DNA of 36,567 nucleotides from the IMG/VR virus record IMGVR_UViG_3300031159_000045, positions 1-36,567 of that record; one strand, written 5' to 3'. The translations under genes were made by a program, and so were the position numbers. Source of the stretch: a virus. Its lineage: Duplodnaviria > Caudoviricetes. This document shows, piece by piece, positions 12,580-36,567 of this stretch. Within the stretch, counting starts at the first letter, position 1. The number at the start of each line of letters is the position of its first letter. The notes beneath the pieces are model-generated. The model was given only the letters and a program-made list of their open reading frames with translations, was not told the DNA's origin and ran no database searches.

Positions 12580-12678
12580 ATGAGCGACCAAGAAATCGCT
12601 GAAAAATACAAGATCAAGTTAAGTACGCTGCGGTATTATCAGGCTTTGTGGCGCAAACGAGGTCAACAGAATGCGTAA
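12580..12678 (+). CDS. 32-aa HTH-like peptide or gene remnant
   Basis: MSDQEIAEKYKIKLSTLRYYQ...; SD GAGGGG. Confidence 0.4.
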   Translation: MSDQEIAEKYKIKLSTLRYYQALWRKRGQQNA

Positions 12679-13747
12679 GGCGTCACTTTTTTCCGGCATC
12701 GGAGGGATCGATCTTGCGGCCCATTGGGCGGGCATGGAGACGGTGTGCTTTTGCGAGCGCGAACCGTTCCCGCAGCGCGTCCTCCGCAAACACTGGCCGG
12801 ACGTGCCGATCATCGACGATGTTCATGATTTTACGCGAAAGGAGTTGGAGCGACTTGGCATTATCGGAGACGGTCGAGCAATTGACCTTATTTCCGCCGG
12901 ATACCCTTGCCAGCCTTTCAGTGTCGCCGGGCAGCGACGAGGCACGGAAGATGACCGCCACCTCTGGCCAGAAGTTAAGCGAATCTTATCGGAAATCCGG
13001 CCCCGTTGGTTTGTTGGCGAAAATGTTGCTGGGCACGTCACTTTGGGGCTCGACGATGTGCTTACTGACCTGGGAGGGGCGGGCTACGCCGCGCAAGTGT
13101 TTATTATTCCAGCTGCGGCCGTCGGTGCCAGTCATAGACGAGACAGGGTGTTCATTGTGGCCTACACCGAGGACATTCGATGCAACGTCAGCAGCGAATC
13201 TACCACTGCAGAACAAGGACAGAAAAAGATCGTCTCCGACACACGAAGGACTTGTTCGAGCGGTGAAATTTTGGCCGACGCCCCGGGCGAACGATGCGGA
13301 GAAGCGTGGGAATATATCGGACGATCCGAGGAATGGGCTGCCGGGAATAGTGAAGATGTGGCCCACGCCAGCGGCGCAGGACGCGAAGAATGCAATGCTT
13401 CCGCCGTCTCAATCGGACCGGGACACAGTCCCCGGGGCGGTGATTCGTTCGGGGGAAACCGGCCAACTCAACCCGGAATGGGTGGAAGCGCTCATGAACT
13501 TTCCAATTGGTTGGACGGAGGTGTGAACCCGCTGGATGCTCTCGCCGAGTTTATCGCTCAATATCCGCAACCGGCACTCATGGGGCAGCCGCAGCATACT
13601 TGGGAACCGCCGCGTGTGGCGACGGGCGTCAAGAACCGGTCGGCACGTCTGAAGGCGCTGGGTAACGCGGTGAATCCGTTGCAAATTTATCCGATCATGT
13701 ACGCAATTCGGGTGATTGATGATTGGTTGAGGAGAGATGCCGCATGA
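12671..13747 (+). CDS. C5-cytosine DNA methyltransferase, catalytic (alpha) polypeptide
   Basis: Motifs I FSGIGG, IV GYPCQPFS, VI ENV, VIII HRRDRVFIVAY, X RLKALGNAV; no motif IX recognised. Confidence 0.92.
   Translation: MRKASLFSGIGGIDLAAHWAGMETVCFCEREPFPQRVLRKHWPDVPIIDDVHDFTRKELERLGIIGDGRAIDLISAGYPCQPFSVAGQRRGTEDDRHLWPEVKRILSEIRPRWFVGENVAGHVTLGLDDVLTDLGGAGYAAQVFIIPAAAVGASHRRDRVFIVAYTEDIRCNVSSESTTAEQGQKKIVSDTRRTCSSGEILADAPGERCGEAWEYIGRSEEWAAGNSEDVAHASGAGREECNASAVSIGPGHSPRGGDSFGGNRPTQPGMGGSAHELSNWLDGGVNPLDALAEFIAQYPQPALMGQPQHTWEPPRVATGVKNRSARLKALGNAVNPLQIYPIMYAIRVIDDWLRRDAA
12855..13526 (+). CDS. Nested +1-frame gene: putative MTase beta polypeptide (three WPTP modules and a motif IX-like segment)
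   Basis: Open frame 12648-13526; TTG at 12855 after AAAGGAG; ends GQLNPEWVEALMNFPIGWTEV. Confidence 0.72.
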   Translation: MALSETVEQLTLFPPDTLASLSVSPGSDEARKMTATSGQKLSESYRKSGPVGLLAKMLLGTSLWGSTMCLLTWEGRATPRKCLLFQLRPSVPVIDETGCSLWPTPRTFDATSAANLPLQNKDRKRSSPTHEGLVRAVKFWPTPRANDAEKRGNISDDPRNGLPGIVKMWPTPAAQDAKNAMLPPSQSDRDTVPGAVIRSGETGQLNPEWVEALMNFPIGWTEV

Positions 13748-14550
13748 CCGCCCCGCGCATTTTACACTACCCAGGCAGCAAGTGGAACATGGCTGAATGG
13801 ATCATTGACCATATGCCGCCGCATAAGACGTACCTTGAGCCGTTCTTCGGCAGCGGGGCCGTGTTCTTCAACAAGGAGCCCTCCCCGCTTGAGACAATCA
13901 ACGACCTGGACGGTGACGTGGTCAATCTGTTCCGAGTGATCAGGGATCGTCCGGACGAGCTTGCACGCTTGGTCTATTGGACGCCGTACAGCCGGGAGGA
14001 ATATTACGCCTCATACGACATGGAGGGGGCGGACGAGCTAGAGAGGGCGAGAAGGTTCTTGGTGCGGTGCTGGATGGCGATGGGTGCAAAACTAAGCAAC
14101 AGAACCGGATGGAGAAATAACCATGATGCCAATTCGCCAAGTCTAATCAAGCTATGGGACATGTTGCCGGAGCGCCTGATGATTGTTACGGATCGGTTAA
14201 AGGGTGCACAAATTGAACAGAAACCGGCGTTGGAACTTATCAAGGAATATCGTTCAACTGAAACATTGATCTACGCGGATCCGCCATATCTTCTTTCTAC
14301 GCGAACAGGGAAGGTCTACAAAAATGAAATGGATGAAAACGAACACCTCGAGCTGCTCAATGCATTAGACGCTCATCCCGGGCCTGTTCTTTTATCTGGA
14401 TACGAGCATCCATTGTATCTCAAAAGGTTGAGCCATTGGCATTGTGAGAGAAAAGACGTTCTCGCTCAAGCAGGGAAAATCGCTACCGAAGTCCTCTGGA
14501 TCAACCCAGTCGCAGCCGAACACGCCGGCAGGCAATTGACACTATTCTAA
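13744..14550 (+). CDS. Dam-like (D12 class) N6-adenine DNA methyltransferase
   Basis: YPGSK, EPFFGSG, INDLD, YADPPY; ATGA-coupled to the C5 MTase. Confidence 0.93.
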   Translation: MTAPRILHYPGSKWNMAEWIIDHMPPHKTYLEPFFGSGAVFFNKEPSPLETINDLDGDVVNLFRVIRDRPDELARLVYWTPYSREEYYASYDMEGADELERARRFLVRCWMAMGAKLSNRTGWRNNHDANSPSLIKLWDMLPERLMIVTDRLKGAQIEQKPALELIKEYRSTETLIYADPPYLLSTRTGKVYKNEMDENEHLELLNALDAHPGPVLLSGYEHPLYLKRLSHWHCERKDVLAQAGKIATEVLWINPVAAEHAGRQLTLF

Positions 14551-15551: not shown

Positions 15552-15847
15552 ACGTCCGGAATACAAAAGGCCCCATCATCAGCAGCACGCGGTCGATGAC
15601 CGAACCAACCGGGGCGGAACGGGTGAGGGAATATTGCCCTCCTGACGTACAACGACTTTTTGAAGAGCATTACAACAACATCTTTGCGACGGGTGAACGG
15701 GATTATCGCGAATGCGATATTTGTGAGGCGATTGAAAAGGTTGTGAAAATGTACGGACATGAAATCGATTATAGATTCGATCAAATATCACCTAATGTAA
15801 TCACCATCCCCAGCATCAACGCGCCGGAAGGAGATGAGGACGCATGA
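15548..15847 (+). CDS. Hypothetical protein
   Basis: ATGA coupling; SD AAAGGAG. Confidence 0.6.
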   Translation: MNVRNTKGPIISSTRSMTEPTGAERVREYCPPDVQRLFEEHYNNIFATGERDYRECDICEAIEKVVKMYGHEIDYRFDQISPNVITIPSINAPEGDEDA

Positions 15848-16167
15848 TACGGTTGACGAAAATTGATTCTGAAGGCAATAAGAAACAAATCATCATTGAA
15901 GTTGAATCTATAGAAAGCATCGAAGAATGTTATGGATTTACGGAAATCACTACTAAACGCGGTTGGGTAATCAAAATCACCGAATCCCCGCAGGAAGTCG
16001 CCCGTAAGGTGCTGGAGTGGCGGCTTGCGATGGAGCGGTATCGAGCATACGTAAACGCCGCCGCTTTGGACGAAAAACCGCAGTCTAACGAATGTTGGGA
16101 ACTTGCGGCAAACGCGAAGGCGGAACTTGTGAGACTCGCCGGACTGGAGGAACCGAACCATGGGTGA
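15844..16167 (+). CDS. FlbD/SwrD-family-like protein
   Basis: MIRLTK...IESIEE...TEIT...ITESPQEVARKVLEWR matches the remembered FlbD pattern. Confidence 0.65.
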   Translation: MIRLTKIDSEGNKKQIIIEVESIESIEECYGFTEITTKRGWVIKITESPQEVARKVLEWRLAMERYRAYVNAAALDEKPQSNECWELAANAKAELVRLAGLEEPNHG

Positions 16168-18988: not shown

Positions 18989-20680
18989 GTGCTTCTCGCC
19001 AAGATCCACGACCGGATAAAGGAACAGGCCAAAGTCAAGAACACCCCGAAATGGGTGCGGGAACCGCGCAAGTACATCGAAGAGCGACTATACATCCGTA
19101 CCAAAACCAAACAGGTCGTGCCGCTGCGCTTCAATCCGATACAGTCCATGTATTGGGATGCGAAGACGAAGCGCGACATCATTCTCAAACCTCGCCAGCT
19201 TGGGTTTTCGACCCTGACGCTCGCGAGGTTTTTTGAGTGCGTCATAAATGAGGAAAACGTCACGGCGGTCGTCGTGGCGCACGATGCGGACAGCACGCAG
19301 AAGCTTTTCCAGACGGTCCAGCTTATGTACGAGCGGCTTCCGGAAGCGAAGAAGGAGCAGCTCAACAACGGCAAAAATAAGCCAAAATACGGCAACCGGA
19401 AGGAATACTACTTCGCCGGAAACAACAGCCGGATTTACGTCGGTACCGCTGGATCCAGCAGTTTCGGCCGCGGGCAGACGATCAACTATCTCCTGTGTTC
19501 GGAGGTCGCGTTCTGGCCTAACCCGGAAGAACTCATGACCGGACTTCTGCAGGCTGTTCCGCCGGACGGCGAAGTCGTGATCGAGAGCACGGCCAACGGC
19601 GTCGGCAACTACTACCACCAGACGTACGAGGACGCCAAGCGCGGAAAGAACACGTGGAAGGCGCACTTCTATGCCTGGTTCCAACACCCGGAGTATCGCC
19701 TCGAACTCGCTCCGGGGGAAACGCTGGAATACGACGAAGATGAGCGCGAACTGATCTCGAAATATGGCGTCGATGACGCGCAACTCAAATGGCGCCGCTG
19801 GAAGATCAGCGAGATGCCGAGCAAGCCGGACATGAGCAAGGAGGACGCGTTCAAGCAGGAGTATCCGGCCAACGACCTCGAGGCGTTCCTGATGACCGGC
19901 ACGCCGGTATTCGATACACGGAAGGTTATGGCGCGCATCGAATTCCTGGAGACCAAGCGGGCGACGATGCGCCCGGACGAACTGCCTGTGCGCGGGAACT
20001 TCGTTTTCAAATACAAGGACCAGATGATCGTCGACAGCAGCATTAGCTTTGTGCCGGATCCGAACGGCGTCGTCACCATCTACAAACATCCTGAGCCGCG
20101 ACGCCCGTACGTGCTCGGCGGGGACACCTCGGAGGGCGGCAAGGACTACAGCGCCGGCCAGATGCTGGACAATATCACCGGCGAGCAGGTGGCCGTCTGG
20201 CATGGGCACAGCGACACGGATTTGTTCGCCAAGCAGATGTACTGCTTCTGCCGCTTCTATAACGGCGCGCTTGCGGCGATCGAGGTCAACTTTGACTTGC
20301 ACCCGGTCAAGGAGCTTGAACGCCTCGGATACTGGCACCAATACCGGCGCGAGCAGATCGACGATTACAACGAGCCTGAGCAGAGCAAGCATGGCTTTAA
20401 AACGACGCCCGTGACACGGCCGGTCATCATTGCGGAACTCGTGGCGATCGTTCGGGAGTCGATCCATCTGATCAACGATCTGCCGACGCTCTACGAGATG
20501 CTGTCGTTCGTTCGCGGGCCCACTGGCAAACCTGAGGCAGCGCCCGGCAAGCACGACGACCTCATTATGGCGCTGGCGATCGCGCACCAAGCGCGTGGCC
20601 AGCAGTCGATGCAACTGGCTCCGGAACAAATCGATTACGACCCAGATTATGAGCCAGCTTTCGGAAGGACGGGATGGTAA
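18989..20680 (+). CDS. terL: Terminase large subunit
   Basis: ILKPRQLGFST Walker A, LLCSEVAFW Walker B, IESTANG, GGDTSEG, HDDLIMA nuclease motifs. Confidence 0.95.
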   Translation: MLLAKIHDRIKEQAKVKNTPKWVREPRKYIEERLYIRTKTKQVVPLRFNPIQSMYWDAKTKRDIILKPRQLGFSTLTLARFFECVINEENVTAVVVAHDADSTQKLFQTVQLMYERLPEAKKEQLNNGKNKPKYGNRKEYYFAGNNSRIYVGTAGSSSFGRGQTINYLLCSEVAFWPNPEELMTGLLQAVPPDGEVVIESTANGVGNYYHQTYEDAKRGKNTWKAHFYAWFQHPEYRLELAPGETLEYDEDERELISKYGVDDAQLKWRRWKISEMPSKPDMSKEDAFKQEYPANDLEAFLMTGTPVFDTRKVMARIEFLETKRATMRPDELPVRGNFVFKYKDQMIVDSSISFVPDPNGVVTIYKHPEPRRPYVLGGDTSEGGKDYSAGQMLDNITGEQVAVWHGHSDTDLFAKQMYCFCRFYNGALAAIEVNFDLHPVKELERLGYWHQYRREQIDDYNEPEQSKHGFKTTPVTRPVIIAELVAIVRESIHLINDLPTLYEMLSFVRGPTGKPEAAPGKHDDLIMALAIAHQARGQQSMQLAPEQIDYDPDYEPAFGRTGW

Positions 20681-20695
20681 GGAGGGTAGCCGAAA

Positions 20696-20905
20696 ATGAA
20701 ACTTGATTGGGATAAGGCTTTGAAACACGGCATCTTCGCGGCTCTGTTCGTCGCGCTTCTGGCATTCACGATGAACGAGAACCGCGCTCGCGAACAGGAG
20801 TACCGGCAGATCATCCAGCAGCAAACAGAAGCTAACGCCAAATTTGCCGACTTGATCAAAATCGATCTGACGCAGATTAAAGACAAACTCGCAGAGGGGA
20901 GGTAA
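20696..20905 (+). CDS. BhlA/UviB-like holin
   Basis: GIFAALFVALL TM segment followed by ENRAREQEYRQII coiled coil; 69 aa. Confidence 0.75.
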   Translation: MKLDWDKALKHGIFAALFVALLAFTMNENRAREQEYRQIIQQQTEANAKFADLIKIDLTQIKDKLAEGR

Positions 20906-20911
20906 GGCACG

Positions 20912-22888
20912 TTGGCCAAACAATCGCAGAAAAACCTGACAAAGTACCTGCAGCGAATCGAATACGCCGAACAAAAGCGCGATGCGGTCTGGCGCGACAA
21001 ATGGCTGGCTTGGTACAAGCGGTACCGTAACGTCGTGGATATGGTGGTCGATCCACGGACGAAAAAGCCGCGCCTGGACCGCTCGAACATTTCCATTCCG
21101 TACCAATTCACGATGGTGGAGACGGTGCTTCCGCGGCTGGTCGAGACGCTTTTCGCTGGTCGCCCATACGTTACCATGAAGGGGCTGCCTCCCGGAACTT
21201 CCGGCGGTGATGTTCGGTCTTTCGTCGAAATGGTGAAGGCGAAAATCAAGCCATGGGAAGACGCTGCCAAGAATATGGAAACGCTCGTCGATTATCAAAT
21301 GAACGTCCCGATGGACATCCAGGACATTTTCGCGGACGGCCTTAAGGGCATGTGCATCTACGGTACGGCCGTGGCTTATACCGGCTGGCGGCTGCGGGAA
21401 CGCGAAGTAATACGACGAGAACGGCGGCCGGTAATGTCTGGCGAATTTGACCCAGAAACCGGCGAGGAACTTCCGATGATTGTTAGCGGTGAAATCGTCA
21501 CAGACTTCCAAGAAGTGTCTGTCAGCGTCAAAGAATACGACGATCCGGAGGTCAGATTCGTGGATCTGGGCCTCTTTTTTGTGGATCCGAACGCGACGGA
21601 CATCGACGACGCTCGCTATTGCGGCCATGACGTATACGTCTCGAAGCGCGAACTCGAGGCGTTGGAAGAACAGGGGGTAATCCGGGTTGATTGGAAACGG
21701 CTGTCGAAGGATTCCCAGGTCAATGAAGCGCGCAATTATCGCATGACGTCGATCGGTCTCCCGTCGGTAGACGACCAGGACGACAACGGCCACGATGACG
21801 ATCTTTACCGCCTAACCTACTATTGGGAAGACGATCTGCGCGTCATGATCCTGAACCGCTGTCAGGTGGTCGCAGAAGGACCGAATCCGTACTGGCATAA
21901 GAAAAAGCCGTACGACAAGGACGTATACTGCGGCGTTCCCGGGGAGTTCTACGGCATCGGCATCATGGAAATCACCCAGGACTTGGGCGACGAACTCAAC
22001 GCCGAGCGTAACCAGCGGATCGATTACCGTTCCATGAGTATGCGACGGATGTTCAAGAAGCGTCGCGGGGCAAACATCGATCCGAATCAGTTGGTATGGC
22101 GACAGGGTGGAGTCATCGATGTCGAGAAAATGGACGACCTTGAAACGCTGGACGCTCCTGACGGCGCGCTGGCGGGTTCTTTTAACCAGGAGGCCATGAT
22201 CAAGCAGGACATCCGTGACGCGGTCGGCGCGCACGACATCGTTATGGGTGCGGCCAGCGGTGGAACGGCCACTGAAGCGATGACGCGGGACAACAACGCG
22301 TCGATCCGGTTCAAGATGATCATCAGTTCAGTGGAAAAGCGCCTACTGCTCGGTGTCGCCCGCAAGATGGTGCAGCTCAACCAGCAGTTCATTGCCGACA
22401 TCCGCGTGCTACCGTTGTTCGATCAGGACGAAAGTCAATGGCCGATCATAACGCCGGAGGATATTCAGGGCGAGTTTCACATCATCGCGTCCGGCAGCAA
22501 CGTGGAGCCGCTGGCCAACAAAGAGGCATTCAAACAGAGAATGGTGGAACTGTACCGGATTGTAGCATCCGATCCGTTTTATCAGCAGTTCCCCAATAAG
22601 CGCCGCAATCTTCTCCAGAAGGTGTTCGAGTCCTTCGACATTCAGGACACGGACGACCTGCTGCCGACCGATGACGAGCTTGCCGGTAGCATCCAGCAAA
22701 TGGCGGTGCAGCAGTTTATCTCAACGCTGCCGCCACAGTTGCAGGCCGTCCTACAGACGGTTATGCAGCAGCAGGCAGCGTCGCCACCGTCCATTCCTTC
22801 CGTTCCTCCGGCCGGCGGCGCGCTTAACACGGCGGCGATGCAGGAACAAGGGCTGCAGATGTCCGGCGCCATCGGGGGTGCCGTATGA
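20912..22888 (+). CDS. Portal protein (P22/podovirus-like)
   Basis: 658 aa after terL; FFVDPNA, FYGIGI, TATEA motifs; Q-rich C-terminus. Confidence 0.85.
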   Translation: MAKQSQKNLTKYLQRIEYAEQKRDAVWRDKWLAWYKRYRNVVDMVVDPRTKKPRLDRSNISIPYQFTMVETVLPRLVETLFAGRPYVTMKGLPPGTSGGDVRSFVEMVKAKIKPWEDAAKNMETLVDYQMNVPMDIQDIFADGLKGMCIYGTAVAYTGWRLREREVIRRERRPVMSGEFDPETGEELPMIVSGEIVTDFQEVSVSVKEYDDPEVRFVDLGLFFVDPNATDIDDARYCGHDVYVSKRELEALEEQGVIRVDWKRLSKDSQVNEARNYRMTSIGLPSVDDQDDNGHDDDLYRLTYYWEDDLRVMILNRCQVVAEGPNPYWHKKKPYDKDVYCGVPGEFYGIGIMEITQDLGDELNAERNQRIDYRSMSMRRMFKKRRGANIDPNQLVWRQGGVIDVEKMDDLETLDAPDGALAGSFNQEAMIKQDIRDAVGAHDIVMGAASGGTATEAMTRDNNASIRFKMIISSVEKRLLLGVARKMVQLNQQFIADIRVLPLFDQDESQWPIITPEDIQGEFHIIASGSNVEPLANKEAFKQRMVELYRIVASDPFYQQFPNKRRNLLQKVFESFDIQDTDDLLPTDDELAGSIQQMAVQQFISTLPPQLQAVLQTVMQQQAASPPSIPSVPPAGGALNTAAMQEQGLQMSGAIGGAV

Positions 22889-23112
22889 CCGAAGCTCAGG
22901 CCGTGCGTTATACGACGCAGACGGAGGGTTGGGCTATCATCGAGGCGGAAATTCATCGATCGCTGGACTACCACCGCGGGCGTCTGGAAGACTGCAAAAC
23001 ATGGGACGAGGTGCAACAGCATCGCGGGGCGATAAGGGCGCTTACTGCGGTGCTTTCGCATGTTGAACAAACGATCAGGGAGGAGGTGGAAGAGGGTGGC
23101 GAGGTACCGTAA
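22885..23112 (+). CDS. Small protein between portal and scaffold
   Basis: ATGA coupling; T.GW.II...QHRGAIRAL pattern. Confidence 0.7.
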   Translation: MTEAQAVRYTTQTEGWAIIEAEIHRSLDYHRGRLEDCKTWDEVQQHRGAIRALTAVLSHVEQTIREEVEEGGEVP

Positions 23113-23262
23113 AAAGCCGGTTGTTGTCGAATCTGAGTAGTAGTTACCGCAGAAAATTAAAAACCGCGGGCCCGGTGAGACTCCGCGCCCGCACATCCAC
23201 TTCGGTGGAACGGCTCCTATTCGGGGGCATTTTTATATTCCACATTGAAAGGGGAAAACCCA

Positions 23263-24138
23263 ATGAGCATTTTCGGTGACGAGACGATAACCCTTCCCGG
23301 ATCCCCGGATGCCGGACAAGACGAGGGCGGGGCCGTAAGTGCCGGAAACGAAAACGACGCCGCCGAAGGTTTCGAAGAACGCGAAGACGCGGAATTCGAA
23401 GAAGCCGACGAAGGCGGCGAGCAGCAAGACGACGAACAAGCCGATGACGATGAAGGCGATGCGTCCCCGGGCGATGATGCCGGACAAGGCGACAACGGCC
23501 TCATTCTCGGTAAGTTCAAGACGCAGGAAGACCTGGCCAAAGCGTATCTCAATCTGCAGCGGGAATTTACGAAGCAGCGCCAAGCGCGGTCTCAGCAGCA
23601 GCCGGCGGCCGCGCCTGCACAAACAGGACAAGGACAGTCGGTCGACCTGAACGAAGTGTTCTGGGCTCAGTTCCGCCAAAACCCGGCTGCGACCATCCAG
23701 GCAATCGTTCAGCACGCCGTCTCGCAACATACTGCGCCGCTCGTTGAAGAACGCCGGACGGAAGTACTTGGGCGTCAATTTGAGGAATTGGCGAAGGAAT
23801 ACCGCCAGCTTGCGACGGACGAGGGCATGCAGAAGTTTACGGCGGCTATCCAGGACGTTGCGGCAGAACTCGGCAATCCCGATCTGGCATTCAACCCGAC
23901 GCCTCGCATGCTCCGCATGGCGGCTCAAGAAGCGTTCGGGGACACTGCGGCAAAGGCGTACGAACGCGGCAAGCAAGCCGGCCGCCAGGACTCCGAGCGG
24001 GCGCGACAAAGCAAGCAAGGCGTCGCTGTCCCGGTCGGAGGAGCAAAACGCAAGGCAGAGACACTGAAGACGCCGGCGGACGAAATCAAGGCGGCCATCT
24101 TGGAGGCCGGACGATCCGGCGGCGGCATCTTCGGTTAA
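23263..24138 (+). CDS. Capsid scaffolding protein
   Basis: Acidic N-terminus, GKFKTQEDLAKAYLNLQ, helical; directly before the capsid gene. Confidence 0.8.
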   Translation: MSIFGDETITLPGSPDAGQDEGGAVSAGNENDAAEGFEEREDAEFEEADEGGEQQDDEQADDDEGDASPGDDAGQGDNGLILGKFKTQEDLAKAYLNLQREFTKQRQARSQQQPAAAPAQTGQGQSVDLNEVFWAQFRQNPAATIQAIVQHAVSQHTAPLVEERRTEVLGRQFEELAKEYRQLATDEGMQKFTAAIQDVAAELGNPDLAFNPTPRMLRMAAQEAFGDTAAKAYERGKQAGRQDSERARQSKQGVAVPVGGAKRKAETLKTPADEIKAAILEAGRSGGGIFG

Positions 24139-24162
24139 TTCAAATCCAAGGAGTGATCACAT

Positions 24163-25317
24163 ATGGCAGTAGTAACGGGAACTCGTGATACCCGAAACAT
24201 CACGCAAAACAAAATTGTTGTCGACATGAGCGACACGATCGCGCTGCTGCAGCCCAATGCAGAGCCGTTCATGTCGTTCCTCAAAATCGCGAAACGCAAC
24301 ACGGAAGTGGCCACCAACCCGAAGTTCGAATGGTTGGAAGACGATCTCCTGCCGCGCTGGGACGCCGTGAACAACGCTTCCGGCTATCAGCCCTCGGATA
24401 CGTCCATTGTGGTGGACAACAGCTCGTATTTTACCGTCAACGATGTCGTCAAGGTGCCGCGGACCGGCGAGGTTTTGCTGGTGACGGCCATCAACACGAC
24501 GACCAATACGCTGACGGTCGTGCGCGGGTACGGCGTGACGGCGGCGGCCGCGCTCAATGATGACGATCCGCTCGTCATCATCGGTAATGCCAACCAAGAA
24601 GGTTCCGGTACCCGCGAGCTTAAGTCTACGCAGGAAGTGCCCAAATTCAACTACACCCAGATCTTCAAAACTCCCTTCGGTGTGACGAATACCGAAAACG
24701 CAACGAAGATGTACGGCGGCAAAGACCTGTCGTATCAGCAAATGAAGGCAGGCGTGCAGCACAAGATTGACATGGCCCGCGCCTTCGTTTTCGGTGAGCG
24801 AAAAGAGGACCTCAGCGGCGGAAAACCGAAGCGCACGACGGGCGGACTGCTGTCGTTCCTGACCAAAAACAACTACGATGCCGGCGGCCAGTTGACGCAG
24901 ACGGAGTTCGACAACAATATCTCGGAGGTCGTGTTCAAGTATGGCAGCAAGGAAAAAATCCTGCTCGCGTCGGCTCGCTTGCTGTCCGTCATCAACAGCT
25001 GGGCGCTTGGTAGGCTCCAAGTCGACAACCTGGCGAAGCAGTACGGCCTTGAAATCTTCAAGTACGTCACGCCTTTTGGCGTTTACAACATCATGAACTA
25101 TCAACACATCCTCGAAGGCGCTGTATACGGGGGCTACGGCATCGTGATCGATCCGGAGGCCGTCAAATATCGCCCGCTGCAAGGACGCGATACGAAGCTG
25201 GAGACCAACATCCAGGCGAACGACGAGGACCAGCGGAAGGACCAATACATCACGGAGGCGGGCCTCGAAGTCCGCAATCCGGAGAAACACGCCGTCATCA
25301 CCGGCGTAACGAGCTAA
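24163..25317 (+). CDS. Major capsid protein (SU10/DUF5309-like)
   Basis: KFEWLEDDL, NYTQIF, RTTGGLL, ITEAGLEVRN. Confidence 0.85.
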   Translation: MAVVTGTRDTRNITQNKIVVDMSDTIALLQPNAEPFMSFLKIAKRNTEVATNPKFEWLEDDLLPRWDAVNNASGYQPSDTSIVVDNSSYFTVNDVVKVPRTGEVLLVTAINTTTNTLTVVRGYGVTAAAALNDDDPLVIIGNANQEGSGTRELKSTQEVPKFNYTQIFKTPFGVTNTENATKMYGGKDLSYQQMKAGVQHKIDMARAFVFGERKEDLSGGKPKRTTGGLLSFLTKNNYDAGGQLTQTEFDNNISEVVFKYGSKEKILLASARLLSVINSWALGRLQVDNLAKQYGLEIFKYVTPFGVYNIMNYQHILEGAVYGGYGIVIDPEAVKYRPLQGRDTKLETNIQANDEDQRKDQYITEAGLEVRNPEKHAVITGVTS

Positions 25318-25333
25318 GGAGGTACAAACAGTC

Positions 25334-25579
25334 ATGGCGAAATTTCAAAGTCGCTGCCCGAATCAAGTCTTGTGCATCAAGCCGGCGCGCAATTCGGTTG
25401 TCGACGGCATCGTCGTTCCGGTTCCGGGTGAGCACATCCGGTTCGAGAACGGGGAGTACGTCACGAACGACAAAGACAAGATCGCGTTCCTGCGTAAGCA
25501 TCGTTTTTTTGGAACATCGATCGTCGAAGTGACGACCGCGGAAGCGAAAAAAGCGGAGCCGCCGGTGCCCGCGGAATAA
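25334..25579 (+). CDS. Small head-associated protein
   Basis: SD AAGGAGG; follows the capsid gene. Confidence 0.7.
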   Translation: MAKFQSRCPNQVLCIKPARNSVVDGIVVPVPGEHIRFENGEYVTNDKDKIAFLRKHRFFGTSIVEVTTAEAKKAEPPVPAE

Positions 25580-25597
25580 TGATTCGTACTCCTGACG

Positions 25598-25627
25598 AGG
25601 CAGGGCATTTTGATGTCCTGCCTTTTT
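25598..25627 (+). terminator. Intrinsic terminator after the head genes
   Basis: AGGCAGGGCAT-TTTG-ATGTCCTGCCT followed by a T run. Confidence 0.8.
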
Positions 25628-25650
25628 CTGTATAAGGACGGTGAAACGAT

Positions 25651-26220
25651 GTGGCAATGACATACGGCGAAATCATCGCGGAGGCCGACGAGCGGTATCC
25701 GAACGGCCTGACGGTGGATTCGAAACTGCGGAAGATTTACAACCGAGAAACGTTTCTCATGCGGACGATCTACCGCCAGAAGACGGCGACGGTATTCGAT
25801 GTGCAGGCTGGGCTGTTCCTGTACCCAATCAACTTCCACCATTCGAAAATCTTTCAGGCCATCTATGCCGGCAAATTCTTCGAATACGAGGACATTAACG
25901 ACAAGACCGGGCAGCCTCCGTTTATGTACACGTACGAGAATTACATCGGGGTTTATCCGACGCCGGACAAGGATATTCAGGGCGGCTTGCTGCTGTTCCA
26001 CTACGTCGAACCGACATGGCCGCTGTCGACCGGTTACTATCCGGTGTTTGACCCGGATTTCCCGATGGTGTTGGTCTATTCGCTTTGCAAAGACATGGCC
26101 GAGGTCAACAAGGAGTTCGACGTGGCCAACGGGTTCATTCAGCAATATAACGCCGAGATCGAGGAGTTCATGAAGGTTAACCGCGAGCCGGCGCCATCTC
26201 AGATGAGGGTGGAGTGGTGA
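25651..26220 (+). CDS. Head-tail adaptor (tail tubular A-like)
   Basis: 189 aa; IGVYPTPD motif; position. Confidence 0.7.
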   Translation: MAMTYGEIIAEADERYPNGLTVDSKLRKIYNRETFLMRTIYRQKTATVFDVQAGLFLYPINFHHSKIFQAIYAGKFFEYEDINDKTGQPPFMYTYENYIGVYPTPDKDIQGGLLLFHYVEPTWPLSTGYYPVFDPDFPMVLVYSLCKDMAEVNKEFDVANGFIQQYNAEIEEFMKVNREPAPSQMRVEW

Positions 26221-28275: not shown

Positions 28276-29569
28276 GCATTGCTTAATATTTTGGCTTGTG
28301 TCAATCGCCCGGTCTGTATTCCTGATAATTGATTGCTGCTTTCAAAAACTTCTTCAGTATTGAGGTTGTTCTTCAGGAAGACCAGCACCATCAACAAGGT
28401 AATATACCGGGTCGAAAATATATCAGGAATCAAGCAAGTTCCAAGCACGGTGAGCAAAATCAGCCAGGATTCATGCATACGATTCCGTGAATCAAGTATT
28501 GCAAAAATGAAAAGTGAGGTATCGGTTGGCCCATTAACGAAGAAATATAGTCTCTGCTAAATCCGTAACCCAATAATGGTTTTTCCTTAAACATATTGAT
28601 TGCAATCTCATAACCAACATCTCTCTCTGATGTGGAGAAAAGAATATCTTTAATACCGGATTGTTGCCGAACTGATGTGTAAAGACTATAGGCACCGAAT
28701 AAACCAACTACACCAAGAAAAGCAGAAACTAATTTACGAGTTACACCTTTTTGTCCAACGAAAATATACATCATGTATAAAGCAAAAAATACGACTAATC
28801 CTGTGCGGGCTGATGTAATCGCAGCACCAATTAAAATGATGATTGGAGTTAACCATGATTTAATTTTGGACTTTTGATTACTTAATAGCTGAATCGATAA
28901 GAAAGCGGTTGTTACTAAGTACAATGATGCATGGCTAGGTTCAGAAAATAGAAAGTAAAAAGACTGTCGGTTTAAAAAGAACTCTACAACCCCAATAGTT
29001 GTTCCGAATTTAAATAAAACATACTGTACTATGATGCCTATACTGGAGAAAAGTCCAGCCTTTATGTAACTTTTTTCAATGTACAGTAGATTAGTTTCAC
29101 TTATCACTCTTCCTTTAAGGAGAGCAACAAGCACAATAATGCTGTGAAAAGACAAAATAATAAACTGACTCAGTCCTTGACTAAAATAATTCGAGTTTGT
29201 GATCAATAAGGGGATGATCGAAAATAGTATTACAAAAAAAATAATGAGACCAAGCGTAAACATTGACCGGTTTAGTTTTATGTCTTTCTTCATCGAAAGC
29301 AAATGAATTATGAGAAGCAGGCCAAATAAGTAAAACCAGGCAATCGGTAGTTCTCCGTAATCGCCACCGAAAACATTACGCCATGATAACGGTATGCTAT
29401 AGCACATGATTTGCACTAAAGCGGTGGTCTTGTTCGACTTCTTTTTAAATTTTCTATAGGCGTACACGAAAAACAAAATGGAAAATCCGAAAATAGCGAA
29501 TCCGGGTATACTGTAAGTTACACCTACGGCCCATATGATTAACAAAGAAAAGTACAAAATATTTACCAT
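28269..29569 (-). pseudogene. Wzy/O-antigen ligase-family membrane protein, apparently frameshifted near the 3' end
   Basis: Multiple TM segments; FSEPS, TSARTG, PLLGYG, PH motifs; frame 28460..29569 stops early and a hydrophobic tail continues in 28269..28478. Confidence 0.7.
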
Positions 29570-29604: not shown

Positions 29605-29633
29605 ATAATATGATCGATGTATATTATTGTCAA
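29605..29633 (-). promoter_or_regulatory. SigA promoter of the wzy-like moron
   Basis: Minus strand TTGACA-17 bp-TATTAT; SD AAAGGTGA. Confidence 0.75.
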
Positions 29634-29670
29634 TCGAATAACATTTTTTAGAAAGGCGAGAGATGATAAC

Positions 29671-31095
29671 ATGTTAAACTACTGGCCCCGCATTTCACCA
29701 AAGAAGCCAACGCACACGCAGCGTGAATTCCTCGGGGTGGACAAGCGTGACCCATTCTCGCTCGACCCGCGGCTGTCCCCTCTGGCCCGCAACTTCATAA
29801 GTACAAACGCCCCAGCCCTGACCGTGCGGCCGGGGTTTTCTGTTTTAGGCGGAGCAATCGGAACCCGCGTGCTCGGCCTCGGGGCATGGAAGGAATCGGA
29901 GTTACACGCCATTTTCAACGATGGTACATGGCGGAAGTGGACAGGTTCGACATGGTCGACGCCGCTGGCTAGCGGGCTGAACACTTCGGCAGTCTGGTCG
30001 TTCTGCAACTTCAAAGGTAACCTCGGAGACGTGAATCTGATCGCAACGAACGGCGTCGATCCGATGAAACGATACGACGGCAGCACCGTAAGCAACGTTC
30101 CGACAGCCCCGGCTGGTGCTAACTTCATCGAGACGCACGACAACCGCTTGTACTGCGCCGTCGGACTGAAACTTTACTTCTCGCCAATCGGTATCGCCGA
30201 CAACTGGAACCTGGTCGAGCAAACGCCGGCGGACGGCGGCAACTTCGACAAGAACACACCACAGGGTGAATCGATCATTGGTTTGCGCGCGGGCTCCGGG
30301 CATGTGTTTGTGCTGTTCCCTTCGTCCTCCTGGGAGTTGTACGGCACGAGCTCGGAGGACTATTCCTACATGCCGGTTGCCGAGGACATCGGCGGGCTTA
30401 ATGACCAGTGCATCGTCAACCTGGGCGGCCTGATTTACTTTCTCGATGAGACCGGTATCTATGTTTACTCGGGTGGCACGCGGCCCCGGAAAGAGTTCAG
30501 CGCAGCCGTTCAGTGGTACGTCGACAACATGAATAAGTCAGCGAAGCTGACCAGCTGCATGGGGGCAGATGGTCGTTATCTGTACGTGGCAATCCCAATG
30601 AGCGCGAATGCAACAGCACCGGACACGATCCTGGTCTGGGATTCGGTGACCGGCATCTGGAACGTATGGGACGGTATCGACGCTGTTCTGATGGCGAAGG
30701 TTGGCGATACGATGTACATGGCCGATGCGCAGGGCCGTGTGCTTCGGATCGGAGGCACGACGGACAACGGCGCGGCCATCTCGTGGGAGTGGCAGCAAAA
30801 GCCGATCAGCGCCTCATCCATGGGGCAGTTGATCCGGTGGCGCGGCCTGTGGGTGACGGCGGTGAAGCCGGCCGGTAGTACGCTGCAGGTTTACATTACC
30901 GACCAGCCGATCGCCGACAGCGGGTGGAAGCTCGCCGGAACGTTCGGCAGCAACATTGATATGCAGATGCTCCCGATGCCGGTTCCGCCTGCGCTAATGG
31001 CTAACGCGCGCTTCCTGCGGCAAAAGATCACCGGGACCGGTCCGGCCACCATCTACGAAACGTCTTGGGACCAAATCGAGCTGCCGATTCGGTAG
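29671..31095 (+). CDS. Tail nozzle / stabilisation protein (tail tubular B or P22 gp10-like)
   Basis: 474 aa beta-rich; HDNRLY, LIYFLDETGIYVYSG; position. Confidence 0.7.
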   Translation: MLNYWPRISPKKPTHTQREFLGVDKRDPFSLDPRLSPLARNFISTNAPALTVRPGFSVLGGAIGTRVLGLGAWKESELHAIFNDGTWRKWTGSTWSTPLASGLNTSAVWSFCNFKGNLGDVNLIATNGVDPMKRYDGSTVSNVPTAPAGANFIETHDNRLYCAVGLKLYFSPIGIADNWNLVEQTPADGGNFDKNTPQGESIIGLRAGSGHVFVLFPSSSWELYGTSSEDYSYMPVAEDIGGLNDQCIVNLGGLIYFLDETGIYVYSGGTRPRKEFSAAVQWYVDNMNKSAKLTSCMGADGRYLYVAIPMSANATAPDTILVWDSVTGIWNVWDGIDAVLMAKVGDTMYMADAQGRVLRIGGTTDNGAAISWEWQQKPISASSMGQLIRWRGLWVTAVKPAGSTLQVYITDQPIADSGWKLAGTFGSNIDMQMLPMPVPPALMANARFLRQKITGTGPATIYETSWDQIELPIR

Positions 31096-31820: not shown

Positions 31821-31866
31821 TATTCGAAGTGTTAAACTGGTGGAAAATGGAGAAAGAGGGATGCTG

Positions 31867-32400
31867 ATGCGAAAACATATCATTAGTTTTATCGCTGGAA
31901 TTCTTTTTGCTTCTGCCATGCCGACTTATGCCGCCGTTACTTCGATCGCCGGAAAAAGCGTGAAAATACAAGGAGAATTTCCGGTTCTCGTTGACGGGGT
32001 CGAACTTCAAAAAAAATCCATCGCAATCGATGGTACGACCTACATTCCCCTAAGAGTAGCAGCGGATTCTTTCGGTTATGACTCTTCTTTCGTTAACAAG
32101 ACTGTCATCTTGGAAAAAAAGGAGGACGTAACGAACGTGGAAGAAACCCAGGAATCAACTCCAATTGAGCAGACCACAAAACGGAGAGTGGAGGCGATTG
32201 AAGAGGATATTGTGAATTGGACAATCCAAAAGCAAATGGTTCAAGGATCTCTTGATACCGCTAAATACAATGTCGAAAAGGGAATAAATGTTGAAAAGAA
32301 CCAGGAATCGATAAAGGAGTATCAGACGATTCTTGATACTATTAACCAGAAATTGAATGATCTCGAAAAGGAAAAACAGGCTGCAGAAGCAGCGCAATAA
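31867..32400 (+). CDS. Secreted protein with a copper amine oxidase N-terminal (stalk)-like domain
   Basis: Signal peptide ending in AYA-like YAA; IDGTTYIPLRVAADSFG. Confidence 0.7.
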   Translation: MRKHIISFIAGILFASAMPTYAAVTSIAGKSVKIQGEFPVLVDGVELQKKSIAIDGTTYIPLRVAADSFGYDSSFVNKTVILEKKEDVTNVEETQESTPIEQTTKRRVEAIEEDIVNWTIQKQMVQGSLDTAKYNVEKGINVEKNQESIKEYQTILDTINQKLNDLEKEKQAAEAAQ

Positions 32401-32406
32401 TATAAC

Positions 32407-32431
32407 AGGCGCCTTGTCGGGCGTCTTTTTA
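32407..32431 (+). terminator. Intrinsic terminator
   Basis: AGGCGCCT-TGTC-GGGCGTCT-TTTT. Confidence 0.7.
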
Positions 32432-32452
32432 TTATGTAAAGGGGACATCCAT

Positions 32453-32641
32453 ATGAGATTAACTGAAGAACAAAAGAACAAGTTGAAAAATAACCGTCTT
32501 CTTCTGTACGAAGCAAAAATCTTCGAATTGGAGATGGATCGCACAGCTGCAGAAGCAGCCGGAGACATGGAGGCATTACCGAATATTGAAGCGAACATTG
32601 AAAAATTGAAGCAGGCGGCTGCAGCCGTCGAGAAAATGTAA
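32453..32641 (+). CDS. Small helical protein
   Basis: SD AAAGGGG; 62 aa. Confidence 0.65.
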   Translation: MRLTEEQKNKLKNNRLLLYEAKIFELEMDRTAAEAAGDMEALPNIEANIEKLKQAAAAVEKM

Positions 32642-32675: not shown

Positions 32676-32693
32676 GCCAGTGAGGTGATTCAG

Positions 32694-33902
32694 ATGGCCA
32701 CAAGCACGAACCAGGCCAACATCTGGGCCCGGCAGTATCTGCGGGATATGGGATACAGCGACGACCAGATTGGCTACGACAAAAACAGGAACATGGTCAT
32801 GGCCGGCGGCATGGACTTCTTCTCTCCTACCGTTACGAAAAACGGCATGGCCTACGGAACGCGGGACCAGCTCGACAACGCCTATCAAACTCTGAAGTAC
32901 AAGCAGGGGCAGAAACAAGCAAACGAACTCGTTCAACGGTTCAACGCCGCACTGAACAAGACATACACGCCGACACCGTTCACCTACGATCCGAACAGCG
33001 ACCCGCAGTATCAGGCGGCGCTGCAGCAGGCCCAGCAAAACGCCAAGATCGCCACCGGGAACGCTATGGCTGCGCTGAACGCCCGCGGCATCGACACCAG
33101 TAGCGTCATGGGTGACCGGGCCGCGCAAATCCAGCAGCAGTCGCTCGGCCAGGTGACAAGCGAAGTGCTGCCGCAACTCGTGCAGCAGGCATACAACCGC
33201 TGGGCCAACGAACAGGCGATGGCATACCAAGCTCAACAGGACGAGATTGCGAACCTCATGAACGCGCTCGGCCTGACCAACCAAATGAACCAGCAGATGA
33301 TCGACAACCGCATGAATGAGAAAAACGCGAACCTGAACGCTGCGCTCGCCGTCAGTGACCTTACCGGCCGGCAGATCACGCCGCAGTCGGATTGGGGCGG
33401 GCTGTTCCGGCAGGCCGCCAACCCGAATACGCCTTTGTCGCTTGCTGGCCAGCAACAGCGGTTTAATATGGATCAGCAGCAGTTCGCAAACGACATGGCA
33501 CTTCGGGAGTTTCAGGAGAACGTTCGTCAATTTGGTTTGGAATATGCGCTTCGTAAGGCGGCCCAGGACGCCAGCATTGCAAACCAAGAGGCGCAGACGG
33601 CGCTGGATTATCAGCGATTTTTGAGTGGCGGCACCGACGGCGGCAGCAACAACTACAACGGGCTTACGGCCAATCAGGCGCTGTCCGTGCTCAGGAGCCA
33701 GTATTCGGTACCAATATACGACGAGGAAGGCAAACAAACCGGCACGAAGATCACGTCCGACCCGGAAGCGCGCCGCCAGATGATTAACCAAATCCTGATG
33801 ATGGGCCTTCCGGATGCGGTGACGGATCAAGTCGCAGCCAGCATGGGCATCACGAACCAGGAGTGGCGCGCGGTCACTGGGGTGGATCTGGGAAATCGAT
33901 AA
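32694..33902 (+). CDS. Putative internal virion / DNA ejection protein
   Basis: Q/A/N-rich helical protein; FTYDPNSDPQYQ motif; position after the tail genes. Confidence 0.7.
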   Translation: MATSTNQANIWARQYLRDMGYSDDQIGYDKNRNMVMAGGMDFFSPTVTKNGMAYGTRDQLDNAYQTLKYKQGQKQANELVQRFNAALNKTYTPTPFTYDPNSDPQYQAALQQAQQNAKIATGNAMAALNARGIDTSSVMGDRAAQIQQQSLGQVTSEVLPQLVQQAYNRWANEQAMAYQAQQDEIANLMNALGLTNQMNQQMIDNRMNEKNANLNAALAVSDLTGRQITPQSDWGGLFRQAANPNTPLSLAGQQQRFNMDQQQFANDMALREFQENVRQFGLEYALRKAAQDASIANQEAQTALDYQRFLSGGTDGGSNNYNGLTANQALSVLRSQYSVPIYDEEGKQTGTKITSDPEARRQMINQILMMGLPDAVTDQVAASMGITNQEWRAVTGVDLGNR

Positions 33903-34306
33903 CCGGCAACCGCGTTAAGGTGCCAGCGCGGTATGCCGGTATGATCGATCAAGCGACGAAGAAATACGGATTGCCAGAAGGGTTGCTCGCGGCCGTGGCA
34001 CAGGCCGAATCCAGCTGGAATCCGAATGCAAAGAGTAGCAAAGGCGCGCAGGGTTTGTTCCAGTTCATGCCGTCCACGGCCCGAGGGTACGGCATCGATC
34101 CATATGACCCGGCCCAAGCGACGGACGCCGCAGGCAAGATGCTCAGCGGGTTGCTCGCCAAATACGACGGCGACCTGTCGAAAGCGCTGGCTGCCTACAA
34201 TTGGGGCGGGGGAAACGTCGACAAAGCTGTTCGTAAGTATGGAAACAACTGGCTTTCGCACGCTCCGGCCGAGACCAGGAAGTACATTAAGAAGATTCTG
34301 GGGTGA
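33863..34306 (+). CDS. Lytic transglycosylase (SLT) domain, probably reached by frameshift
   Basis: AESSWNPNAKSSKGAQGLFQFMP, ALAAYNWG, ETRKY. Confidence 0.9.
   Translation: MARGHWGGSGKSITGNRVKVPARYAGMIDQATKKYGLPEGLLAAVAQAESSWNPNAKSSKGAQGLFQFMPSTARGYGIDPYDPAQATDAAGKMLSGLLAKYDGDLSKALAAYNWGGGNVDKAVRKYGNNWLSHAPAETRKYIKKILG
33890..33940 (+). other. Putative -1 programmed ribosomal frameshift signal
   Basis: In-phase G GGA AAT at 33890-33896; 13-bp bulged hairpin at 33902-33940. Confidence 0.7.
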
Positions 34307-34311
34307 TAAAT

Positions 34312-36567
34312 TTGACTTCAAAGTATGATGCCTACCGCCAGAAGTACAGTTCCAAATTCAACGAATACGCAGAACGTTATGTAGGAGGGGCTGCGGCTCC
34401 TCCTGTTTCTGTTCAGCCCATTTCGGGCGGAAGTAAATATGATGTTGCGCGGCAGCGGATTGCCACCGGCGCCGCTGAACGCGAAACGCTCCAAGGGCTT
34501 GCGCAGGGCGTCGATATCCTGTCTGATTTCTTCGGATCCGCGATCAAAAAGGGGGTTGCTAACGCGATCGACCGCACAAAACAAGCCGTTCAGGAGCGGA
34601 AACTTCGTGAAGCCGAAGAAGCAAAGTCCCGGGCGACCCAAACGCCCGCGGTGAAGCACAGCCCGCTCAGCAAAGCGATCGCCAGCACCAGCGACTTTAT
34701 TGCTGATCTTATCCCGGTTCATGTTCCGGGTGGTCGAAAGATGGATAAGACAATCGGTGAGCAGATTGGAGCAATCGGCAGAAGAACCCAGATCCCCGGG
34801 ACCGTCGGAGACTTGTTGGCCGGTTTCGATCTCACGGCTTCCATGGGCCTGTCGAAGGTTCTGGCCGACGCATTCGGCATGCAGGACCGGACGGAGCGCG
34901 CCGAGGACACGACGGGCGGCAAAATCGGCCAAGCAATCGGCTATCTTAATCCCGGCGGCGGTGGTCTGGCATACAGGGCGGCCGGCAGGCTGACAGCGCC
35001 ACTTGTGCGGAATGCTTCTAGCATCGTCCAGAATGCGGCTAGGGGGGCGGCAGCGGGCGGCATCCTGCAGGGCGGAATTGAGGCTGGGGAAGCATTGTCC
35101 GGCCAGAATGACCAGCCACTCGGGGAACGAGCGCGCGAAATCGCTCTTGCGGTCGGAATCGGCGGCGCCGGAGACGCTGCAATTCAAGGGATCGGAAGGC
35201 TGCTATCCAACGTCGGCAACCGCGCGGCGCAGCAAATCGTTAACCGCTCGCTGGAGACGACAAGTGTGCTCGATGATGTCGGCAGAGAATCGAGTCTCGT
35301 TTCTGCCTCGAAAAGGTACTTGGATGACATTGACGAGCAGCTTGCGAATCTTAACCGGAACGCGCCCGATTACGAGCAGCAGCGGGCGGCGCTCGAAAAT
35401 GACCGTAGGGCAACCGTGTCGTTCATCCGGCAGCATGAACCGGATTTCGTTGACGAGGTAGCAGTTTCCGTCCCCCCGGACATTGATTCGCTTGTTCGTG
35501 AATACCAGCAAGCGGACGAGGCGATCAAAGAACTGGACGAGAGATTCGGCAGGAAGTACGGTGCAAATCAACCGATGACGCCGGACGATTTGCGACAGTA
35601 CCTGGCGCTGAACGAAGCCCGCAGCCAGGCTGCCCAAAAGATTCAAAACGCGGTTCGCATTGCCGAAGTCCCGGAAGGCGTAAAGGCTCGCGCCGCTGCT
35701 GGAACCGAGTTGACCGCCGCGGCAACTTCTACACCGCCCACAGCAGCTTTACCGGCGGGAACCGTCCGCGCGCGCGTGACACCGCCGGCAGGAAACAGGT
35801 CGACGGGTCCGACGGCAGCCGAAAGCAAGCCGAAGAAGACCATCTCCCGCGTGCAGCTGATCGAGAACATTCGTAAAAACCTTGGCGTGACCATAGACAC
35901 CGGGCGCACAGGGTACTCCCGCGACCAAGTTCTGGGCGTTTACAAGACGCAACCCGAGGTAATCCGGACCGGATACGCAGAGGATTACGATACGATCGCG
36001 CATGAGATCGGACATCACTTCGTCAAGCAATACAACCTGTTGGAGCCGAGGTACGAACACGAACTGCTGAACATGATGGATACAATCGGTTCGCACGATT
36101 ACCAGTCCTATCCGCGATCAGAGTGGTTCGAAGAAGGCGTCGCCGAGTACATGCGGGTTTACCTGACGGATCCGGACCGAGCCCGTGAGTTGGCGCCGGA
36201 GTTCACCGCACATTTGGAGAGCGTGCTGCCGAAGAAGACAAAACGGGGACTGGCCAACGTACAGCGCGACATCCGAACATGGATCGAACAGGGTCCGTAT
36301 GAGCAGGCCAAGGGTCTTATCGACTTCGACGGCGGCGGCAGCAAGGATAGGAAGGCGAGTTGGAACCGCTGGTACACAACAATGATCGATGACCTGAATC
36401 CGATCAGACTGGCGGAAAAAGCGCTAACCGGTACCGTGAACATAGGCAGCAAGTCCATCTATAAGATGGCCCGGCTGAGCCGCGGCGTTGGCGAGCAAGC
36501 GAAAATGGCGATCACCCGCGGTATATTCGATTCTCAGGGTAACAAACTCAGCGACGGGCTTCGGCAG
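34312..36567 (+). CDS. Large internal virion / polyvalent-type protein with a zincin-like HExxH domain (3'-truncated; absent from the ORF track)
   Basis: TTG at 34312 after GGGGTGA; MTSKYDAYRQKY...; frame spot-checked open to the window end (752 codons); AHEIGHH at about 35998-36018 and EEGVAEY downstream. Confidence 0.78.
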   Translation, partial: MTSKYDAYRQKYSSKFNEYAERYVGGAAAPPVSVQPISGGSKYDVARQRIATGAAERETLQGLAQGVDILSDFFGSAIKKGVANAIDRTKQAVQERKLREAEEAKSRATQTPAVKHSPLSKAIASTSDFIADLIPVHVPGGRKMDKTIGEQIGAIGRRTQIPGTVGDLLAGFDLTASMGLSKVLADAFGMQDRTERAEDTTGGKIGQAIGYLNPGGGGLAYRAAGRLTAPLVRNASSIVQNAARGAAAGGILQGGIEAGEALSGQNDQPLGERAREIALAVGIGGAGDAAIQGIGRLLSNVGNRAAQQIVNRSLETTSVLDDVGRESSLVSASKRYLDDIDEQLANLNRNAPDYEQQRAALENDRRATVSFIRQHEPDFVDEVAVSVPPDIDSLVREYQQADEAIKELDERFGRKYGANQPMTPDDLRQYLALNEARSQAAQKIQNAVRIAEVPEGVKARAAAGTELTAAATSTPPTAALPAGTVRARVTPPAGNRSTGPTAAESKPKKTISRVQLIENIRKNLGVTIDTGRTGYSRDQVLGVYKTQPEVIRTGYAEDYDTIAHEIGHHFVKQYNLLEPRYEHELLNMMDTIGSHDYQSYPRSEWFEEGVAEYMRVYLTDPDRARELAPEFTAHLESVLPKKTKRGLANVQRDIRTWIEQGPYEQAKGLIDFDGGGSKDRKASWNRWYTTMIDDLNPIRLAEKALTGTVNIGSKSIYKMARLSRGVGEQAKMAITRGIFDSQGNKLSDGLRQ

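Follow-up and report, generated by a model that had tools for sequence, protein, structure and literature searches.

A conserved −1 frameshift signal predicted to place interchangeable wall-cutting domains on a likely ejection protein of short-tailed phages

The stretch of DNA analysed here, 36,567 nt in length (the window), contains integrase, repressor and recombination genes and represents the genome of an uncultured temperate phage. One of its late genes, which we refer to as the carrier, ends CTG GGA AAT CGA TAA, and its stop codon is overlapped by a second reading frame that encodes a hydrolase. This raises the question of whether the hydrolase is made as a protein of its own or as an extension of some carrier chains, and what such an extension would do. 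A preliminary description of the locus had proposed a −1 frameshift fusing an ejection protein to a lytic transglycosylase. The sequence elements that it named are all present (Table 1): a slippery heptamer in phase with the carrier, a hairpin 5 nt after it, and a transglycosylase frame in the −1 register without a well-spaced Shine-Dalgarno (SD) sequence, as none of the six ATG, GTG or TTG codons before the catalytic Glu has an SD match of at least 4 nt at a distance of 4-12 nt. The plain product has the 402 residues given there; the fusion after a −1 slip was computed as 537 rather than 536 residues.

Table 1 Positions of the carrier, its 3′ junction and neighbouring late genes in the window
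Feature	Position	Strand	Basis and remarks
Shine-Dalgarno sequence of the carrier, GAGGTGA	32682..32688	+	Sequence
Carrier gene, 402 aa from ATG	32694..33902	+	ORF; likely internal virion or ejection protein, no named family
Slippery heptamer G GGA AAT, in phase	33890..33896	+	Sequence and conservation
Spacer, 5 nt	33897..33901	+	Sequence; 0-frame stop TAA at 33900-33902
Hairpin, 15 bp, predicted 3′ stimulator	33902..33940	+	Folding and covariation of the outer 7 pairs
−1 frame extension, predicted lytic transglycosylase (SLT, PF01464)	33893..34306	+	ORF and profile; putative catalytic Glu codon 34007-34009
Terminase, SU10-type portal, capsid and adaptor genes	18989..26220	+	Profile matches; context
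P22-gp10-like tail hub/nozzle	29617..31095	+	Profile matches; marks a short-tailed virion
Large protein with HExxH motif, cut off at window end	34303..36567	+	Sequence

The heptamer is the sole in-phase one of the carrier gene, and the −1 frame is open from 33788 to 34306, making it the longest open −1 frame among the 17 late genes scanned. In the same scan the carrier is followed by the strongest downstream fold: the hairpin, with a single bulge in its 15 bp, has a predicted energy of −25.9 kcal/mol (z −4.13; 0 of 200 shuffled sequences were as stable), and the second strongest fold reaches −14.0 kcal/mol. Stem-loops right after stop codons are common in bacteria and, in the available literature text, are not known as drivers of frameshifting; the hairpin by itself would therefore be insufficient evidence. 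A reading as an intrinsic terminator was rejected, the hairpin having no U tail and not being listed by a terminator scan. We also set aside an upstream SD-like stimulator (GGGGTG, 5 nt before the heptamer), as a loose, control-free motif search matched only 34 of 79 loci. Against the SLT profile the −1 frame scores 100 bits (curated cut-off 21.3; E 7.5e-29) and it contains the AES catalytic Glu motif, which together place it in the SLT family; the extension is accordingly a predicted lytic transglycosylase and a predicted wall-cutting domain.

Homologs of the carrier were drawn from viral contigs, metagenomes and genomes, together with a sample of 401 genomes from the family to which a Paenibacillus record belongs; 64 of these genomes contain a carrier. 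From 147 entries we removed 6 that run off their contig and 2 under the profile cut-off, which have neither a heptamer nor a −1 hydrolase. The remaining 139 loci form 104 clusters at 95% identity, with three loci identical to the window merged with it. The protein family comprises 642 representatives at E values up to 1e-10; strong matches in named genome records belong to Paenibacillus, and a close protein comes from Cohnella. A phylum-wide sample gave matches in 6 of 401 genomes, four of them weak and without heptamer or −1 hydrolase, and no carrier was found among the cultivated phages of the INPHARED set. Two cultivated-phage records with related capsids carry contractile-tail genes.

Three natural states occur among the 104 clusters. 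A hydrolase lies across the carrier stop in the −1 frame in 81, is fused to the carrier in frame in 5 and is absent from 17. Named Paenibacillus lysogens exemplify all three: frameshifted with an SLT tip (P. rhizophilus 7197, P. amylolyticus PAE5) or a GH73 tip (P. silvae CGMCC 1.12770), fused (P. gorillae G1) and tip-less (P. kobensis NBRC 15729). Wherever the hydrolase occupies a separate frame, that frame is −1 (81 of 81). The −1 hydrolases are SLT domains (47, in two sequence classes of 19 and 28), GH73 glucosaminidases (24), VgrG3-like C-terminal domains (9) and one peptidase M15. In-frame fusions also account for 9 of 184 database proteins and include both SLT classes, GH73 and VgrG3-like domains. 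On a FastTree tree of the carriers the tip type changes at least 39 times, a figure that recombination within carriers may inflate. The sequences thereby indicate a tip that is interchangeable among four enzyme families behind one conserved slip cassette. It is also optional in some lineages: six-frame scans of about 10 kb around 12 of the 17 tip-less loci showed no such hydrolase in any of the 12 regions, so its relocation was not found there, and the tip is evidently not universally needed. The one cluster outside the three states (L094) has kept the signal and has a broken GH73 frame; in this locus and in L085 the slip signal is intact and the hydrolase frame is interrupted internally, by decay or by sequencing error. 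A set of long carriers known from protein only (P0020-P0030) ends in FNQ, FNQR or FNQNR, not in GK or GN.

Conservation of the heptamer and covariation of the stem among relatives had been named in the preliminary description as checks on its reading, and both are borne out. A slippery heptamer occurs in the last 8 codons of the carrier in 79 of the 81 loci with a −1 hydrolase and in none of the 22 with a fused (5) or missing (17) one, against a background of 106 in 6552 windows; in 73 loci it directly precedes the stop codon. Seventy of the 79 are strict X XXY YYZ sites and 9 are G GGG GAG, a class defined after the data were seen; GGGGGAA, a similar site with G-U re-pairing, has been discussed (PMC10885494). 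The tree, built from 103 carriers without L079 and without the terminal residues, offers 11 independent pairs on branches with good support, and in all of them the heptamer tracks the −1 hydrolase (p about 0.001). The signal is conserved beyond what the protein requires. At all 72 G-type sites, Gly is preceded by a codon with G in its third position (17.4 expected from codon use), and Gly itself is encoded by GGA before AAN (63 of 63) and by GGG before GAG (9 of 9). At the protein level, 65 of 180 homologs have a C-terminus of GK, GN or GE, where about 2 would be expected. The two related −1 SLT loci without a heptamer, L116 (2002-2071) and L137, have a U run instead (GTT TTT CAG and TTT TTT CAG); their stem differs in sequence but keeps the spacing.

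Structure downstream of the carrier is similarly distributed. Folds below −12 kcal/mol were predicted in 71 of the 81 −1 loci and in 0 of the 22 others, a contrast that is partly built in because the control regions hold the ribosome-binding site of the next gene, which favours low structure; within-locus control windows average −8 to −10 kcal/mol. A 6-7 bp stem begins 5 or 6 nt past the heptamer in 66 of 82 loci; this distance lies within the usual heptamer-to-structure spacing of 5-9 nt (PMC5009743). Covariation was assessed in the window's SLT class, using 18 of its 19 loci (all but L006). Their outer 7 pairs include 25 cells with both sides changed, and 0 of 500 shuffles reached this two-sided count, the percentage paired or the covariation score; the number of covarying pairs did not stand out from the shuffles (167 of 500), and the structure tested was read from the same sequences. 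A second stem of 5-8 bp, which would form a pseudoknot, is found in 12 of the 13 loci of this class that have the first stem (permutation p 0.005), and was not seen in the other tip classes. The window is the exception among the 13: its second stem would have only 3 bp, so a pseudoknot was rejected there, and it has a longer hairpin instead.

With an in-phase X XXY YYZ site leading into an open −1 frame, a 3′ structure at the usual distance and conservation exceeding protein constraint, the junction has the features of a heptamer-type frameshift. Conservation, synonymous-site constraint, covariation, the missing ribosome-binding sites and the in-frame fusions together give strong support to the −1 frameshift first proposed, and we consider a programmed −1 ribosomal frameshift at the end of the carrier very probable. 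Given the −1 hydrolase, the conserved slippery site and the usual hairpin, ribosomes likely produce two forms of the protein, a plain one and, more rarely, one with an enzyme tip. According to the accepted mechanics of −1 frameshifting, the ribosome would pause at the hairpin 5-6 nt downstream, and the tRNAs on GGA and AAT would re-pair on GGG and AAA so that the stop codon is bypassed. A small share of ribosomes would likely slip back by one base in this way, and the adjacent stop codon may add to the stimulation. One gene would then yield both the plain protein and the longer one with its predicted wall-cutting tip. The slip rate is probably low, since in E. coli sites of the A_AAC type are less effective than A_AAG (PMC5009743), tRNA-Lys(CUU), expected to lower the shiftiness of AAG sites (PMC5009743), was found in host-family genomes (3 of 4 loci checked), and the G GGA AAT ending of the window is unique among 80 sites.

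The designation of the carrier as an ejection protein agrees with its gene order, its composition and a helical model; the homology to known ejection proteins that the name might imply was not detected. The carrier follows a P22-gp10-like hub and precedes a very large LPD38-type gene, so that it occupies the position of an ejection cluster: after hub and needle genes, in a short-tailed phage and beside a very large protein. SU10 gp20-24 have the same position after nozzle and needle and are lost on genome release, gp20 being a transglycosylase (PMC9509320). LPD38 was found in the next gene in 15 of 20 relatives, where the counterpart of the gene at 34303 measures 1,100-1,700 aa (869 aa in one locus), and the LPD38 protein of phi24B is present in virions and has been proposed as an ejection protein. 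By gene position and the LPD38 of its relatives, the window's large protein is likely a second ejection protein. In composition, with 41.5% Q/A/N/G and no Cys, the carrier resembles P22 gp7/gp20 and SU10 gp21/22, and its predicted structure consists mostly of long helices (pLDDT 82; pTM 0.42, a low global confidence).

Searches with the carrier gave no match in Pfam or to an annotated PHROG and no sequence match in the PDB. Foldseek reached a best E of 0.32 against the PDB and returned uncharacterised top matches among viral models, and an ESM Atlas search pointed to no named family. An hhalign probability of 0.4% gave homology to P22 gp7 no support, SU10 gp21 gave 0.2%, and direct comparison with P22, SU10 and H4/4 proteins showed no homology; proteins of T7 were covered via the PDB and PHROG searches. 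Podovirus ejection genes can share under 10% identity (PMC8954989). Because all tests of homology to named ejection proteins were negative, we infer a function like theirs and do not claim membership of a family. We regard this functional assignment as quite probable.

The frameshift could be real and the carrier still be something other than an ejected conduit, such as an external part of the tail, a chaperone or another virion or assembly protein, or the fusion could serve lysis. The lack of homology to solved or named ejection proteins and the low global confidence of the model would fit such a role, and lambda G/GT provides a frameshift pair that is non-structural (PMC5009743). On the other hand, the carrier lies between hub/needle-like genes and the LPD38 giant, as SU10 gp20-24 follow nozzle and needle, and resembles P22 and SU10 ejection proteins in composition; a separate amidase endolysin is encoded further downstream in the two relatives scanned, and neither a tail tube nor a tape measure is evident in three module maps. 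We therefore consider these other roles unlikely.

If the carrier is an ejection protein, both forms would likely be packaged in the virion and ejected at infection. The gene order suggests, as does the analogy with SU10 gp20 and T7 gp16, that the carrier may form a helical conduit through the Gram-positive envelope, in which a few tipped subunits would open the peptidoglycan locally. The slip cassette would be a socket that receives SLT, GH73, VgrG3-like or M15 domains in exchange for one another. Taken together, the frameshift, the two forms and the ejected wall-cutting tip make up an explanation that we hold to be probable.

A different account would treat the hydrolase as an independent gene, translated from its own start or by re-initiation coupled to the carrier stop, with the heptamer incidental. 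In the window, an ATG at 33941 coincides with the start of the Pfam SLT match and would give the whole of it. This ATG nevertheless comes right after the stem, which would hide its upstream region, and PHROG homology sets in ahead of it: the best match starts with residue 10 of the 147-aa −1 ORF, close to the slip site. Across the 81 loci, the −1 codon over the stop is often a possible start (CTG 41, GTG 2, ATG 2), whereas GTA in 32, ATA in 2 (the window being one) and CTA in 2 speak against initiation there. Of the 72 hydrolase frames in which the catalytic motif was located (the pattern missed 9 of the 81), 10 lack ATG, GTG and TTG upstream of the motif, and in 17 an ATG is present. A start codon of any kind with a 4-nt SD occurs in 12 of these 72 frames; the next gene has one in 73 of 78 cases and the carrier in 102 of 104. 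Independent initiation of the hydrolase appears unlikely from these sequences; the account as a whole would also leave the fixed −1 phase and the synonymous constraint unexplained, and we judge it very improbable. As a start codon is often lacking, gene callers will miss or truncate these hydrolase frames.

Slippage of RNA polymerase in place of ribosomal frameshifting could also produce the fusion, and both the tRNA-Lys(CUU) of the host family, with which AAG is expected to be less shifty, and the U runs at two loci would suit it; most sites nevertheless have runs of just 3-5 bases, and the signal is locked to codon phase, 5-6 nt ahead of a 3′ stem, leaving this mechanism only a slight chance. 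A sequencing error or a decayed fusion gene, which the in-frame fusions of relatives and the internal breaks of L085 and L094 might suggest, is largely refuted and has a negligible chance, since 36 of 38 clusters at 60% identity share one and the same break, phase and signal, and the junction is identical, without indel, in contigs of three runs (X1, X2 and X3), of which X1, and perhaps X2 as well, may have supplied the window itself.

Phage lambda G/GT uses the slip site G GGA AAG. Like that pair, the carrier would yield a short and a long product from a G GGA AAN heptamer at the end of a gene. Unlike it, the extension is a hydrolase and not a tube-binding domain, and the carrier does not have the setting of G/GT, a pair flanked in its long-tailed phage by the genes for tail tube and tape measure. 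Optional frameshifted C-terminal domains on virion proteins are known from T3/T7 gene 10, Lactobacillus phage A2 and the Listeria phages A118, A500 and PSA (PMC5009743), where one gene likewise gives a plain and an extended structural protein. The mobile Ig-like domains occur in frame or behind a frameshift, as do the tips described here (PMC5009743). Those extensions are mostly Ig-like decorations of capsid or tail tube proteins and are indifferent to the direction of the shift (+1 or −1) (PMC5009743). The extension of the carrier, in contrast, is a predicted enzyme from one of four families, always in the −1 frame, behind one conserved cassette and on a likely internal protein.

Transglycosylases are found on the ejection proteins T7 gp16 and SU10 gp20 (PMC8954989, PMC9509320), so that these systems, too, have a muralytic domain encoded among the ejection genes of a short-tailed phage; with SU10 the window also shares the type of portal, capsid and adaptor genes upstream. 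The enzymes of T7 gp16 and SU10 gp20 are encoded in frame, in phages of Gram-negative hosts, and have no detectable homology to the carrier, and the word 'frameshift' is absent from the available text of both papers (PMC8954989, PMC9509320). The closest parallel found is the Alteromonas phage vB_AspP-H4/4, a podovirus for which a putative −1 frameshift between a lysozyme and an internal virion protein is mentioned in one sentence (PMC5658483). In its record (MF278336.1), gp39 ends with A AAA AAG followed by the stop, and gp40 is annotated as joined. As here, a muralytic domain and an internal virion protein would be united by a −1 shift. The order is reversed, however, with the lysozyme as the constant N-terminal part and the virion protein as the extension, and the case concerns a putative shift in one genome of a T7-like phage with a Gram-negative host, without homology to the carrier.

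In the literature covered, mostly main text of freely accessible papers and including PMC5512222 and bioRxiv 10.64898/2026.04.10.717836, we found no report of a frameshift in the carrier family; supplementary frameshift catalogues may list these loci. What is new here, as read from sequence, is a conserved slip cassette with interchangeable predicted wall-cutting tips, together with the three natural states; the podophages concerned have Gram-positive bacteria as their named hosts. If correct, this would extend phage frameshifting beyond tail chaperones and capsid decorations to the dose of an infection enzyme in the virion. It would also offer a testable model of how short-tailed phages cross the thick Gram-positive wall, for which the T7/P22 ejection model is not described in the available text of PMC8954989. 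The frameshifted, fused and absent states and the four enzyme types form a ready comparative series within a single family. More tentatively, and with somewhat less than even confidence, we suggest that widespread temperate P22/SU10-like podophages of Gram-positive Paenibacillaceae may build a trans-wall conduit from one gene in two forms with a reusable tip socket, and that the stimulator (hairpin or pseudoknot) or a full fusion may set the number of armed subunits, tuning entry to the wall chemistry of the host.

Several further features of the genome lie outside this argument. Directly upstream of the carrier (31840-32641) are a predicted secreted protein of 186 aa with a weak Cu_amine_oxidN1 match and a 62-aa ORF, with a terminator-like hairpin at 32407-32426 near them; relatives have similar secreted-type genes in this slot. 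Between the tail spike region and the hub, a membrane gene resembling O-antigen ligase/Wzy (PF04932) occupies the opposite strand (28460-29569, −), and it may be a moron for surface modification or superinfection exclusion. Adjoining genes for a C5-cytosine and a Dam-type adenine methyltransferase are located at 12671-14550, and a FlbD/SwrD-like protein (PF06289, E 4.8e-06) is encoded at 15844-16167, with a possible effect on host motility. In three relatives (L152-L154) the same carrier/hub/LPD38 tail module is joined to capsid families (Mu gpT-like, Phage_capsid_4) different from the SU10-type capsid of the window, which suggests exchange of head modules.
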